Origin: a virus
Taxonomy: Duplodnaviria > Heunggongvirae > Uroviricota > Caudoviricetes
IMG/VR virus record: IMGVR_UViG_2541047883_000004
DNA: 42,149 nucleotides
Reading direction: 5' to 3' (one strand)
A program made the translations under genes and the position numbers. Position 1 is the stretch's first letter. Each line of letters opens with the position of its first letter. Positions 29,496 to 33,067 of this stretch are shown piece after piece. The notes below the pieces were generated by a model that was not told the DNA's origin, did not search any database, and saw only the letters and a list, made by a program, of their open reading frames with translations.

Positions 29496-30641
29496 TTATT
29501 TTTGTTTTATGGTAAATGAAATAACATTGTCAGAATGAATCATATCTGATTCTTTAAATCGTGTAATTGCAGATAACTCATTTAAGGGAAGAGCAAAGAT
29601 ATCAGTTAACTCAGTTACCTTTATGATTGAATGCTTATCAAGAAGTAAAAGTAACTTATTAAGTAACTCAGGCTCTTCTTTTGGGATTGCATCATCTAAC
29701 GGCTCCCTACGATGGAATGGCGCTAATTGCTTAAATATATAGCTTTTCTGATTATCGCTGATTAACTTAAGGCTATGACTCCTCATGGCAATACTACCGA
29801 TAGATGTAATCCAACGTAGTTTTAATCGTTCTAACGCTGATAAATTTGGACTATAAAATTCACGCCCGAAAGTGGTGGCTGGCATTAAAAAGCTGGAGGC
29901 AAAATAATCGGCCTGCAACTCCACCAGGTCGAATAATTCTTTATCATTCAGGTAGTCATCCTCCACTGCCCTATGCATAATTAAATGGCCAAGTTCATGA
30001 GCAAGACTAAATCGCATGCGAACAGCCGTCTTCGAGCTATCTAACATAATTAAAGGCCGCCCATTATGCCAGAACGAAAAGGCATCAACTTTCTCACCAG
30101 AAGGTAAATGAGAAACCACGATTCCTTTATTTTCAACAAGTCTAGTTAAATTGAGTATTGGACCATCACCTAACCCCCAAAAACGCCTTAATTGGGTGGA
30201 CATATCCTCAATATCAGATAGAGACAGAACCTCAAAATCAATAATATCGAATTCAGGCAGAACCACATCTGGTAATTGAGCATATTTTAGACATTCATCC
30301 AATATTAATGCCGCCCAACGCCCACGTGTTTTCCCTGTAACTCGAGCCTTTTTGGTCGCAGTTGAACGACTTCTAAAATGAATCGCCCCCTCCAGAGATG
30401 GAGAAGCACTGGAGGCTAAGAAAAATCGTTCTGGAAATCCTAACACCTTGGCTATTGCAGAAAGTGTATCAGCAGAGGGAGACTTCAACCCCTTCTCAAA
30501 TGACGAAATAGCTTGTCTTGAAATATTGAGCACTCTGGCAAGTTCAGCCATCGTCAACCCTTTTGCCTCTCTTGCCTCCTCAAGGCGACGAGGATTAAAC
30601 GATTTATCAGTAAATGGTGTTTGTGCGATATTCATGCTCAT
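29496..30641 (-). CDS. XRE-family HTH fused to ImmA/IrrE (M78) zinc metallopeptidase
   Basis: N-terminal HTH (GLTMAELARVLNISRQAISSFEKG); HExxH motif HELGHLIMH with downstream ELQADYFASSF typical of ImmA/IrrE. The ATG overlaps the stop of the upstream gene (ATGA). Confidence 0.8.
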   Translation of the reverse strand: MSMNIAQTPFTDKSFNPRRLEEAREAKGLTMAELARVLNISRQAISSFEKGLKSPSADTLSAIAKVLGFPERFFLASSASPSLEGAIHFRSRSTATKKARVTGKTRGRWAALILDECLKYAQLPDVVLPEFDIIDFEVLSLSDIEDMSTQLRRFWGLGDGPILNLTRLVENKGIVVSHLPSGEKVDAFSFWHNGRPLIMLDSSKTAVRMRFSLAHELGHLIMHRAVEDDYLNDKELFDLVELQADYFASSFLMPATTFGREFYSPNLSALERLKLRWITSIGSIAMRSHSLKLISDNQKSYIFKQLAPFHRREPLDDAIPKEEPELLNKLLLLLDKHSIIKVTELTDIFALPLNELSAITRFKESDMIHSDNVISFTIKQK

Positions 30642-31252
30642 GATTGCTGTGATTTAATTATTTGTTCGGTAAGAATCTTGATTTTATCTTCAATCTCAGA
30701 ATCCACATTTTCTGCTTCAACTTCTACCATCGTCATAATTGGTAAAGACTCAGTATAAAGAATCCCGTAATTATCCGAAGAAGGAACAGTTAAATTCAGT
30801 TTGGACAAGTGCTGATTACTGCCATCATGTAACATATAAACATGTCCACCAGACGCTCTCCCATCCAGGGAGTCGGCATTTTCATCCCCAAAATTCAATT
30901 CATAATTTTGATTAGCGTAAACAGCTCTATACAATGCCTGCTTAGGAAGTGGCGCATTACCCGATAAATGATGTGCCGTCATTTTCCAGTTGTTCGAGTG
31001 AATCGCAATGTGTTTACAATTTTTAGCAGCATTGCTACCGACTTCAAAATCCAGCCCCACACGCTTAGCCGCATTCTCAAGCAATGCATCGGCATAAAAC
31101 CAGCGCAAATATGACTGTGCTTGAGCCCAAAAAGAACCAAACTCTTTTGCCTTCATATGCGAATGAAGATAAGCCTGTGCTAACGCGATCGAAAGCTCTT
31201 TGCGGCACTCCTTGTCATATGCTTCTAACAACTGTTGAGATAAATTCTGCAT
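30638..31252 (-). CDS. Hypothetical 204-aa protein, first gene of the cassette
   Basis: ORF with SD AAGGA and its own candidate promoter (TTGACA boxes at 31270-31310, minus strand). No TM segment or motif I recognise; AT-rich codon usage. Confidence 0.6.
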   Translation of the reverse strand: MQNLSQQLLEAYDKECRKELSIALAQAYLHSHMKAKEFGSFWAQAQSYLRWFYADALLENAAKRVGLDFEVGSNAAKNCKHIAIHSNNWKMTAHHLSGNAPLPKQALYRAVYANQNYELNFGDENADSLDGRASGGHVYMLHDGSNQHLSKLNLTVPSSDNYGILYTESLPIMTMVEVEAENVDSEIEDKIKILTEQIIKSQQS

Positions 31253-31327: not shown

Positions 31328-31351
31328 AGAAAAACCCGCCGAAGCGGGTTA
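31328..31351 (-). terminator. Rho-independent terminator after hok
   Basis: Minus strand reads AACCCGC-TTCG-GCGGGTT followed by TTTTCT. The core is 19/20 identical to the terminator at 29465-29484. Confidence 0.6.
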
Positions 31352-31418
31352 AGCGCGGGTGCATTGAGGATGCCTGACTCATCAGAGGTGGCGAGGGATT
31401 TCTCCCCCGCCTAGTCTC

Positions 31419-31574
31419 TTACTCCTCAGGTTCGTAAGCTGTGAAGACAGCGACCTCCGTCTGGCCGGTTCGGATTCGTACCTCGCAGAGGTCTTTCCTC
31501 GTTACCAGTGCCGTCACTATGACGGTTAAACAGATGACGATCAGGGCGATTAACATCGCCTTTTGCTGCTTCAT
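31419..31574 (-). CDS. hok: Hok-family type I toxin
   Basis: MKQQKAMLIALIVICLTVIVTALVTRKDLCEVRIRTGQTEVAVFTAYEPEE, colinear with Hok (... [28 protein letters not shown]) as recalled. Confidence 0.85.
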   Translation of the reverse strand: MKQQKAMLIALIVICLTVIVTALVTRKDLCEVRIRTGQTEVAVFTAYEPEE

Positions 31575-31640
31575 AGCCTGCTTCTCCTTGCCTTCCGGCA
31601 CGAAAGAGGCTAACCTACATGTGTCTAGCATGAAATTGGC
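31560..31640 (+). ncRNA. Candidate Sok-like antisense RNA region over the hok leader
   Basis: Position only, from established hok/sok organisation. Promoter and 3' end not identified in the sequence. Confidence 0.25.
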
Positions 31641-32197
31641 CTCAGATTAATGTTAAGCGTCTTGCAGGACGCGTAATGTTAACTGGGGCTTTTCTCTATC
31701 TGCCGTTGGTGTTCATGCCTGAGGCAGATAGCCTCAAGCACCCGCAGCAATTCTACTTAACTCACGTCACCTCGCCAATATAAAATCAATCAGAAAGGCG
31801 ATCCGTAAGAACAACAGCAAGACAATAAATTGCCATTACAGCCGCAATAGCTAGCGCACATTTGAGAACCAGCACGACAACCTCCTGAATTGGAAGTACA
31901 CCAGTCCTGATAAATATGAGGCTGTCTCGTCAGTGATTCAATACAACTATTGGGTATAGTTTCTCAGATTTTTTTCTGTGGAAATTGGACACAACACCCG
32001 CTCACCACCAGCACTTCTTTAAACACACCTAGTCAGGATCCCGCCTGACCTTTTATAACACGTAACTGTTAACTGACAGGCAATAGCCTGTCGGATATTA
32101 CAATGTCAGCTCTTGGTGCGAAGCTGTCGCACTAATTCTGTGAGCGAAGAACGGACATTTTCATTGTTGATACAGGATACATTGAAGTAGTCAACCA

Positions 32198-32446
32198 ATG
32201 GCTTTTCGCATAGTCTATATTCCAGCTGCAACAGTTACTAATGATATTGCTATATTTGCGGATCATCTTGAATCTTTTTTGTCTGAAAACTGGGTAGAAT
32301 GGGGTAAGGCCTGCAACGAAATTGAAGCACTTACAGGAATCAATCTCTCAAAAAATCAACTAGCTTACCGAACAGCAACTATCAATGCTAAAGGCAACGT
32401 ACCAGAAATGCTCGAGACTATTCTTGCTAAATCTGCTGGGCGATAA
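32198..32446 (+). CDS. Hypothetical protein
   Basis: 82-aa ORF in an AT-rich accessory stretch. Confidence 0.3.
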   Translation: MAFRIVYIPAATVTNDIAIFADHLESFLSENWVEWGKACNEIEALTGINLSKNQLAYRTATINAKGNVPEMLETILAKSAGR

Positions 32447-32599
32447 GCACGAGTGAAGATACTGTTCCAAAAGCCTTCTATTCAATAAATTACGAAGTGC
32501 TAACTAACCGACTATGTACAGAGCAAATCACCTTGAATTGCTCTTGATTGAATGGTGAAGAATTATGAGGGTGATAGTCCTTCCCACCCTCAATTAAAA

Positions 32600-32827
32600 T
32601 TAAAGGTATTTACGTGAGAAATTTTTCTTAACCACACTACTAATAAAACTATTTAGCCCATGCCCAGCCTGGGCTAACTCTTTCATCCTAGAGACCGTTG
32701 AAGCCCCTGGTTTTGTAGAATCGTAAACGTATTTCCATCCATCTTTAAACTGTACTGTGATAGCATCTGGAGTAATCTCATAAAACACTATACCCGAATT
32801 ACCGCCTTTATTAGCATAAGCTGGCAT
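32600..32827 (-). CDS. KTSC-domain small protein
   Basis: 75 aa with a Y-x-Y ... F pattern resembling KTSC domains. Confidence 0.4.
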   Translation of the reverse strand: MPAYANKGGNSGIVFYEITPDAITVQFKDGWKYVYDSTKPGASTVSRMKELAQAGHGLNSFISSVVKKNFSRKYL

Positions 32828-33067
32828 TTTTTATCCTTATTAAATTATAGCAGAAAGTTGCTACACTCTAGTCATATGACCCATGCTAAACCTAATTGTT
32901 GAGCTAAGTCATAATTTCGATCATTTGATGAATGTAAGTTATTTGACAGGCAGAATTAACCATACACTGTAATGTCCGTTTTTGGTACAAAGATGCCAAT
33001 CACACTAGTTCTAGTCTTATGCAACCGAAGTGTCAATTAATATCTGAACTAATGCTCTTTAATCTCG

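Follow-up and report, generated by a model that had tools for sequence, protein, structure and literature searches.

AcrZ, KdpF, CydX, MgtS, PmrR and MgrB are proteins of fewer than 50 amino acids (aa) that consist essentially of one transmembrane (TM) helix, that are tolerated when expressed and that act by binding larger membrane proteins; they are encoded by core or regulon genes of the chromosome, and their partners are known. The short type I toxins of the ZorO/OrzO, TisB/IstR-1, ShoB/OhsC, DinQ/AgrB and Ibs/Sib pairs are of comparable length (ZorO and TisB have 29 aa), have one hydrophobic helix and occur in horizontally acquired DNA, and they are accompanied by a conserved small RNA (sRNA) with at least 18 nt of complementarity and by long structured 5′ untranslated regions (UTRs). 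The Hok/Gef toxins (PF01848), which come with mok and Sok, are likewise small single-TM peptides, and control of hok is a complete and well-understood system of mRNA fold-back and Sok that needs no upstream open reading frame (ORF). Here, we describe a small ORF (sORF) of 29 codons that is the immediate neighbour, on the same strand, of a prophage hok locus. It occupies 31875..31786 on the minus strand of a 42,149-nt viral DNA (IMG/VR virus record IMGVR_UViG_2541047883_000004), the whole of which is referred to below as the window. We give a probability of roughly 60% to the reading that the sORF and its promoter form an autonomous prophage cassette of ~175 nt encoding a single-pass inner-membrane microprotein, which would act via contacts of its membrane helix.

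The existence of this gene has been catalogued, but it has never been characterised. Table S4 of ‘The Cryptic Bacterial Microproteome’ (Fesenko et al., bioRxiv 2024; PMC11188072) lists an ortholog in BL21, VLVLKCTLAIVAVMAIYCLVIVLMDHLSD (NC_012971.2 1591437-1591524, minus strand), with 13 retapamulin start-site (translation initiation site, TIS) counts and 38 footprint (ribosome-protected fragment, RPF) counts that cover 0.897 of the ORF. The ortholog carries the prediction ‘Entero67K’, that is, it passed the purifying-selection classifier, and its cluster, Escherichia_98807, has 389 members with dN 0.074, dS 0.161 and dN/dS 0.46 (PMC11188072). Members of this cluster and the database entries WP_000960667.1, ACT39199.1 and ACT43394.1 are 29 aa long, share 79–86% ungapped identity with the window peptide and also sit upstream of hokD, and on this likeness the window sORF belongs to the same family as Escherichia_98807 and WP_000960667. 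The catalogue entry itself is a bare listing, one of 67,297 clusters, or a ‘hypothetical’ or ‘membrane protein’ label. What is described here beyond those entries is the promoter-plus-ORF cassette, its independence of hok and a copy on the Shigella virulence plasmid pINV. A search of the main texts of the literature for the peptide strings and WP_000960667 found no paper, and a general literature search on hokD and prophage small proteins returned nothing specific to the sORF.

Similar candidates have been catalogued by the tens of thousands; the sORF is at the same time a widespread, concrete and well-delimited example of the hydrophobic microproteins of enterobacterial mobile DNA, which are largely unexplored. 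With promoter, leader, ORF, cassette boundaries and hok independence in hand, the catalogue entry is now a testable unit. For annotators and for those who hunt type I toxins, the locus also illustrates that a hydrophobic sORF beside hok is not automatically part of the hok system, nor automatically a toxin.

A small gene under purifying selection

The original prediction had described a minus-strand frame of 29 codons that is opened by GGAGG-N5-GTG and closed by TGA, and the locus is exactly so built (31886..31786): AGGAGG is followed by the five nucleotides TTGTC and then by GTG (31875..31873), the stop is the TGA at 31788..31786, and the product, with the initiator read as M, is VLVLKCALAIAAVMAIYCLAVVLTDRLSD. 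It had also been called essentially one TM helix, which is borne out by a grand average of hydropathy of 1.72 and by a mean Kyte-Doolittle value of 2.56 in the best 19-aa stretch (residues 6-24). Among the 225 window ORFs of 25–40 aa, the sORF alone has a hydrophobic 19-mer of TM grade, and it is also the only one to combine this with a Shine-Dalgarno (SD) sequence. The window holds no second copy (paralog) of the peptide. The surrounding DNA had been described as AT-rich, a mild overstatement, as the intergenic stretch has 43% GC against 49% for the window. Matches to the SD-start motif GGAGG-N4-9-DTG are not enriched in the window (20 against 21.8 expected). From one sequence alone, the sORF is thus only mildly notable, and the decisive support for a gene beyond chance is comparative.

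A frame this short could be open by chance and conserved by hitch-hiking with hok, or because the DNA is a promoter, an UP element or a recombination anchor. That no stop has arisen carries little weight by itself (under the null, P(no stop) is 0.55), the motif at its start occurs at chance frequency, the family is young and narrow, and most current annotations omit the ORF. Nevertheless, we consider a non-coding origin of the conservation very improbable in view of how the frame has changed. The ORF is intact in 95 of 95 loci retrieved by peptide similarity. Because a sample selected by the peptide is biased, a second one was drawn by matching DNA to the conserved promoter-like block alone, a pattern independent of the ORF, and here the frame is open in all 113 loci. 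One hundred of these give a 29-aa reading (31 aa in one), and the remaining 13 are intact on reading: they have a variant SD (GGGGG or GAAGA), in one case a CTT codon, and in three copies an 11-nt deletion that removes the stop, so that 35 aa are encoded instead.

Substitutions were reconstructed by parsimony on a neighbour-joining tree of 47 unique haplotypes and compared with a mutation-matched null of 2,000 simulations. The ORF frame has undergone 50 synonymous and 44 non-synonymous changes and has gained no stop, where the null has a mean of 28.2 synonymous changes and none of its 2,000 simulations reaches 50 (P<0.0005; omega ~0.38). By codon position the changes number 27/18/49, so that the third position takes 49 of the 94, and the replacements are conservative (A/V/T, V/I, M/V/L/I, D/E, L/F). 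When the five other frames are treated in the same way, a synonymous excess appears only in the antisense frame that shares the wobble positions. The same signal is seen in single comparisons: the window copy differs from that of the hok-less MS14384 locus by 8 synonymous and 5 non-synonymous changes (pS/pN 0.35/0.08), and from that of the Shigella plasmid pWR100 by 10 and 8 (pS/pN 0.46/0.13). The excess is therefore frame-specific as well as significant, and the published dN/dS of 0.46 for the cluster, obtained independently, agrees with the ~0.4 computed here (PMC11188072). Selection is purifying and acts on the amino-acid sequence rather than on translation alone.

The signals for initiation have been kept as well. 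On pWR100 (pINV), ATG replaces GTG while AGGAGG and the promoter-like block are retained, a switch that preserves initiation, and across the family GGAG(G/A) is kept while the bases around it vary, with GGGGG or GAAGA as rare variants. The ORF is also kept in loci without hok. The original prediction had named conservation of frame and SD in related prophages, together with translation, as ways to check the ORF: frame, SD and start codon are all conserved, and for the BL21 ortholog there is a weak published signal of both start sites and footprints (PMC11188072). RNA structure, as judged from folding, does not account for the conservation. The minimum free energy (MFE) of the mRNA has a z of -1.15 (27 of 200 shuffled sequences fold just as stably), and in the consensus fold none of the 39 pairs is compensatory (covariation term -0.11). 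With high confidence, we regard the sORF as a real protein-coding gene.

A cassette with exchangeable flanks

The unit that stays constant among relatives extends on the minus strand from ATTGAA (31942) to ~17 nt beyond the stop (~31769), a length of ~175 nt. It includes a promoter-like TTGAAT-17-CATATT, which is found at the same position in 74 of the 84 unique haplotype blocks. For promoter and UTR, conservation was read from a profile of 58 haplotypes; tree-based per-site counts are inflated there by indel misregistration. The profile peaks at ATTGAA, at CATATTTATCAG, at GGAGG and at the start codon and is low in the promoter spacer, which is variable, as would be expected of a promoter followed by a site of translation initiation.

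Both flanks of this unit are exchanged freely. Upstream, at least six unrelated sequence types adjoin the core, some of them exactly at the -35, and homology with the most divergent types starts exactly at the -35-like element. The block found upstream in the majority type (‘group 1’), as in the window, is ~90-93% conserved within that type, and unrelated sequence takes its place in at least four other types. The genes beyond the upstream flank differ too, and include DUF5677, DUF4145, AAA-ATPase+RloB, QueH or methyltransferase genes. Downstream, hok follows in 166 of 183 loci; 16 are hok-less and run into the convergent terminator of a DUF1971 gene, and pINV has a decayed hok. Even in the hok-less contexts, ~14-17 nt past the stop are still homologous (TTACATACTGGCTA vs TTTCATATTGGCGA). 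Such mixing and matching of flanks around an unchanged promoter-plus-ORF is the behaviour of an autonomous cassette in mosaic phage genomes.

Distribution in genomes, phages and plasmids

The cassette is common in Escherichia and almost always missed by annotation pipelines. A 160-nt core query finds it in 1,924 of 5,426 complete E. coli genomes (~35%), with at most three copies in each and almost never with an annotation. A longer query of 291 nt, comprising the ORF and its upstream flank, matches 1,979 of the 5,426 genomes, and in 1,587 the match spans 80% or more of the query. The core is also present in 229 IMG/VR viral contigs, in the four sequenced phages Tritos, Evi, mEp460_ev081 and HannyBb, on ~124 Shigella pINV virulence plasmids and on several large virulence plasmids of enteroinvasive E. 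coli (EIEC). Outside Escherichia, Shigella and E. albertii, it was met only in three short contigs of metagenome-assembled genomes (MAGs), which probably represent contamination. A protein search with the window's own in-frame 44-aa extension of the 29-aa peptide yielded relatives from E. coli and E. albertii alone, and no wider family. In the protein collection, 62 contigs have the peptide exactly as it is in the window, and its relatives are labelled ‘hypothetical’ or ‘membrane protein’.

That the ORF is unannotated, as the original prediction had it, is right for nearly all of the 1,924 genomes and for the RefSeq record that is identical to this stretch of the window, a Rac/Qin-like lambdoid prophage of E. 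coli Ecol_316 in which nothing is annotated between an 82-aa gene and hokD. It is wrong for a minority of records. The Prokaryotic Genome Annotation Pipeline (PGAP) calls the sORF in some genomes as WP_000960667.1 (‘hypothetical protein’, on 650 contigs), and older GenBank records of REL606 and BL21(DE3) contain a variant (ACT39199.1 / ACT43394.1) labelled ‘conserved hypothetical’ or ‘membrane protein’. Some gene callers start at upstream ATGs and report forms of 34-68 aa; the conserved SD precedes the GTG. In the Ecol_316 record, the locus tags jump from BE963_RS22655 to BE963_RS22645 and RS22650 is missing right at the site of the sORF, which suggests that a gene call was lost during re-annotation. 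E. coli K-12 does not have the sORF, as relBE occupies the position in front of its hokD, and the absence of the gene from K-12 explains why it was never studied.

In Shigella, the M90T plasmid pWR100 bears an ATG-start homolog (L008 2930..3200) with a ~70-nt remnant of the hok mRNA leader, ~290 nt upstream of the icsP start codon. This site lies within the long icsP-ospZ intergenic region, which is regulated by H-NS and VirB; a literature search on icsP and ospZ brought up VirB/H-NS papers only, with no mention of the ORF in the entries as listed. The arrangement suggests that the icsP upstream region is derived from a prophage fragment.

Relation to hok

The sORF had been placed next to a type I toxin locus, and rightly so. 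The Rfam sok/hok-leader model (RF01794) matches downstream of it with 114.7 bits, and with the hok promoter placed at 31778..31750, the sORF stop is 8 nt from the hok -35. Between the sORF stop and the start of the hok mRNA there is a fixed distance of 42 nt in 91 of 95 loci. These features invite the idea, also raised in the original prediction, that the sORF is a regulatory leader peptide or upstream ORF (uORF) of hok, co-transcribed with it and tuning, by its translation, the expression of hok/mok or the folding of the mRNA. The idea gains from the lack of a terminator between the two genes, by scan and by folding, which makes read-through from the sORF promoter into hok likely where they are adjacent; nothing points to a role in hok control. 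The same analyses showed neither an attenuator nor a significant structure on the way from the ORF to the hok +1 by which translation of a leader could be coupled to hok expression, and this speaks against the idea.

Sampling from the side of hok, however, separates the two genes. Among hokD-type loci collected by the hok leader alone, independently of the sORF, those new to the set comprise 91 without the sORF, seven with it and five too near a contig end. Together with ~17 re-listed sORF loci, this means that ~24 of ~115 hokD-type loci (21%) carry the sORF. Loci without it have unrelated upstream sequence and a -35 of their own (TTGCGG or TTGCTG), and the two kinds of locus diverge between the -35 and the -10 of hok, from which we conclude that TTGGCG, the hok -35 of sORF-bearing loci, comes from the 3′ flank of the cassette. 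The leader idea can count this contribution of a -35 in its favour. The separation also works the other way: hok is absent from 16 of 183 sORF loci, and on pINV, where the sORF persists, hok has decayed to the ~70-nt leader remnant. In addition, hok has its own promoter beyond the sORF stop, and selection on the sORF acts on the amino-acid sequence and not merely on translation. The leader idea, already largely refuted by this two-way separability, is rejected here as highly improbable, and the cassette is genetically independent of hok.

In the 3′ region of hok there is a sub-threshold Rfam match to isrK (31329..31410, minus strand; 26.1 bits against a gathering score of 50), which most likely reflects merely the terminator hairpin.

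Is the product a type I toxin?

A second proposal of the original prediction, a small membrane toxin, deserves more attention. The sORF could encode a type I or orphan toxin that would depolarise or permeabilise the inner membrane and whose RNA antitoxin is strain-specific, transcribed from the opposite-strand site at 31757..31786, or is encoded elsewhere. The peptide is as small and hydrophobic as type I toxins typically are; its gene adjoins hok within a hotspot of defence and cargo genes, with the Rosmer pair RmrT/RmrA just downstream; and a GTG start and weak promoter would keep expression low. There are, in addition, two promoter-like sites on the opposite strand. The antisense site, which points into the sORF, is found in 34 of 84 unique haplotype blocks, and the divergent site GTGATT-16-TATAGT in 66 of 84, all of the majority upstream type.

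Neither of these sites lies in the conserved core. At the antisense site, most relatives have TGAAAT or TGTAAT and so lack the key A2, and the -35 is in hok-specific DNA and is absent from hok-less loci. The divergent site is missing from four other upstream types that keep the ORF intact. Taken together, the sites are missing from the hok-less, pINV, group-2, L049, L152 and L004 contexts, in all of which the ORF is intact. In 31770..32070, no complementarity or repeat of at least 9 nt was found between the upstream block and the sORF mRNA, and the cassette has no Rfam match. The check for an antisense RNA partner that had been suggested for this locus thus found no conserved cis-antisense or divergent promoter, and no conserved RNA partner, in the core. 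In the short leader, the SD is not hidden by any structure that is significant or supported by covariation. In the mRNAs of hok, tisB, zorO, shoB and dinQ, by contrast, the SD is hidden by structure.

In sequence, the peptide is not similar to Hok or to any toxin family. It has no family match in Pfam or NCBIfam (both at E<=10), PHROGs or PADLOC beyond noise such as ATP synthase subunit c (E 0.02-0.1), and a PDB profile search with it returned nothing. Unlike the Hok/Gef peptides, it has no periplasmic Cys-containing domain, and the sORF has neither an overlapping mok-like frame nor a fold-back mRNA nor a Sok-like antisense RNA. From the short type I toxins it is set apart by the lack of a conserved partner, of complementarity and of structure, and by an acidic tail where theirs is basic or amphipathic. 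Moreover, on pINV the start has been upgraded to ATG behind a perfect SD with no partner present, and the BL21 peptide is translated in ordinary culture; these two observations suggest that the product is tolerated. We therefore regard a toxin of a type I locus as unlikely, and an orphan toxin is not favoured either.

Four related ideas were tried and rejected. A divergent sRNA antitoxin (GTGATT-16-TATAGT) as obligatory partner lacks complementarity, and several upstream types do not have it. An 8-nt repeat, GTGCTGGT, shared by the ORF start and the upstream block and picked out by eye, would on a rough estimate be matched ~0.2 times by chance, and it is not conserved in s789 and in the group-2 type. 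A hairpin ACUUCC/GGAGGU that would sequester the SD in the window is broken in most relatives by a G-G mismatch. Finally, a truncated duplicate of Hok has no basis in sequence, as the peptide has no Pfam match and BLASTP does not align it with the neighbouring HokD even at E<=100.

A proposed single-pass membrane microprotein

The reading that we prefer, the autonomous cassette, can be put as follows. The minus-strand stretch 31942..31769 would be a gene cassette with a weak sigma-70-type promoter, TTGAAT-17-CATATT, from which it would be transcribed in lysogens (predicted transcription start site ~31906), and by read-through in lytic growth. An unstructured leader of ~31 nt with the canonical AGGAGG would then direct translation from the GTG. 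The predicted product has K5 near its N-terminus, a hydrophobic helix of ~18-22 residues and an acidic tail D/E-R/H-L/F-S/T-D, and would insert into the membrane N-in/C-out, with K5 inside and the acidic tail outside. There, the helix may self-associate or bind a membrane protein of host or phage, and the product would be made at a low level and tolerated, and would not be a killer under regulation. The cassette itself would move in the variable cargo region of Rac/Qin-like lambdoid Escherichia prophages, usually landing just upstream of hokD.

Helix contacts are proposed by analogy with AcrZ, KdpF, CydX, MgtS, PmrR and MgrB. The sORF peptide resembles these in size, single helix and tolerated expression, and theirs is the mode of action that we consider most likely for it. 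There is no homology to any of them, and in contrast to these genes the sORF is prophage and plasmid cargo without a consistent neighbour. Within the peptide, residues L2, K5, L8, A9, I10, A12, I16, Y17 and L19 are invariant and positions 7, 11, 14, 15 and 20-22 are variable, a distribution that gives a hint of one conserved helical face.

A number of points weigh against this reading. The helical periodicity of its variability is a trend only (P ~ 0.10, best angle 105 degrees), which makes the argument for an interaction face weak. The promoter-like element matches the consensus at 8 of 12 positions, below the threshold of the promoter scan, and its activity is only predicted. The BL21 copy gives its ribosome signal without the native promoter: a deletion there (L216 1440..1560) has taken away the promoter-like block, so that the sORF leader now directly follows a DUF977 gene shortened from 141 to 119 aa, and the signal is therefore ascribed to upstream transcription. 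The 13 start-site reads are also weak beside the hundreds to thousands of established small proteins (PMC11188072, Table S4). As the family is restricted to Escherichia, Shigella and E. albertii, the total divergence that can be analysed is small, and in the HannyBb/Z1323/BL21-type sub-clade pairwise dN/dS against the window is ~1, on very few changes. A side effect of the BL21 deletion is that the DUF977 reading frame now stops within the sORF.

The product might serve the phage lifestyle more specifically: made by the lysogen, it might modify a host envelope protein, for instance to exclude superinfection or to mask a receptor, or it might help, or confer immunity to, neighbouring cargo that acts on membranes, such as Hok or defence systems. 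In this case, it would make sense that the sORF borders a cargo slot whose contents vary greatly (DUF4145, AAA-ATPase+RloB, QueH, methyltransferase, Rosmer), that it has its own promoter-like element like the morons expressed in lysogens and that Shigella pINV has kept it, ahead of the gene for the outer-membrane protease IcsP. On the other hand, it does not co-vary with any neighbour, the cargo on both sides changes freely, and PADLOC and PHROG searches gave no match. Such an accessory role, which no result singles out, would be a refinement of the cassette reading and not a true alternative to it, and we consider it doubtful. The stronger version, a new prophage-borne family of membrane microproteins with a specific envelope role (immunity to or modulation of Hok or cargo, or superinfection masking) that was kept for this role when a piece of prophage became part of pINV, strikes us as quite improbable. 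If it were true, the pINV copy, which lies ahead of icsP in DNA controlled by H-NS and VirB, might share its regulation with virulence genes. A peptide that modulates an envelope protein or phage susceptibility would be a widespread factor of lysogenic conversion; one with no measurable effect would be one more low-expression microprotein.

Features of the locus and its neighbourhood

Table 1. Coordinates of the cassette, its predicted signals and the adjoining hok locus in the window.
Feature	Position	Strand	Remarks
sORF	31786..31875	minus	GTG, 29 codons, TGA; one predicted TM helix, acidic C-terminal tail
Predicted 5′ UTR, ~31 nt	31876..31906	minus	SD AGGAGG at 31886..31881
-35-like TTGAAT	31936..31941	minus	Inside near-invariant ATTGAA; putative promoter activity
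Near-invariant block CATATTTATCAG	31907..31918	minus	-10-like CATATT (31918..31913) and predicted start-site region
Conserved 3′ flank of the cassette	31769..31785	minus	Includes TTGGCG (31778..31773), used as hok -35 where the sORF is present
Majority-type (‘group 1’) upstream block	31943..32034	minus	Outside the minimal core
Divergent promoter-like site	31933..31960	plus	GTGATT (31933..31938)-16-TATAGT (31955..31960)
Antisense promoter-like site	31757..31786	plus	TTAACT-18-TAAAAT, pointing into the sORF; not conserved
Neighbouring hok/sok (hokD-type) locus	31329..31743	minus	Rfam RF01794, RefSeq hokD
hok promoter	31778..31750	minus	TTGGCG-17-TAGAAT
sok/hok-leader match (RF01794)	31743..31569	minus	
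hok mRNA	from 31743	minus	
mok	31631..31419	minus	
hok coding sequence	31574..31419	minus	
hok terminator	~31360..31329	minus	

Between the DUF977 gene and the sORF (31943..33067 in the window; equivalents in L002-L007, L009 and L010) lies a variable cargo site, which in some relatives holds a methyltransferase fragment. In the window it holds two orphan genes, one of 75 aa (32600..32827, minus strand) and one of 82 aa (32198..32446, plus strand), neither of which has a match in Pfam or PADLOC. A bidirectional terminator-like hairpin, GGTCAGGCGGGATCCTGACT, stands at 32031..32050 and marks where the conserved upstream block ends on the left; it belongs specifically to the cargo of this prophage and is not kept in relatives. 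On the far side, directly after hok, two overlapping genes (29496..31252, minus strand) match the Rosmer anti-phage defence pair in PADLOC. RmrT is matched by a 204-aa product (30638..31252; E 7.5e-10) that RefSeq labels merely ‘hypothetical’, and RmrA by a 381-aa product (29496..30641; E 5.5e-102) with HTH_3 and Peptidase_M78/IrrE domains, labelled ‘helix-turn-helix domain-containing’ in RefSeq. In related prophages, the slot taken here by Rosmer holds rem.

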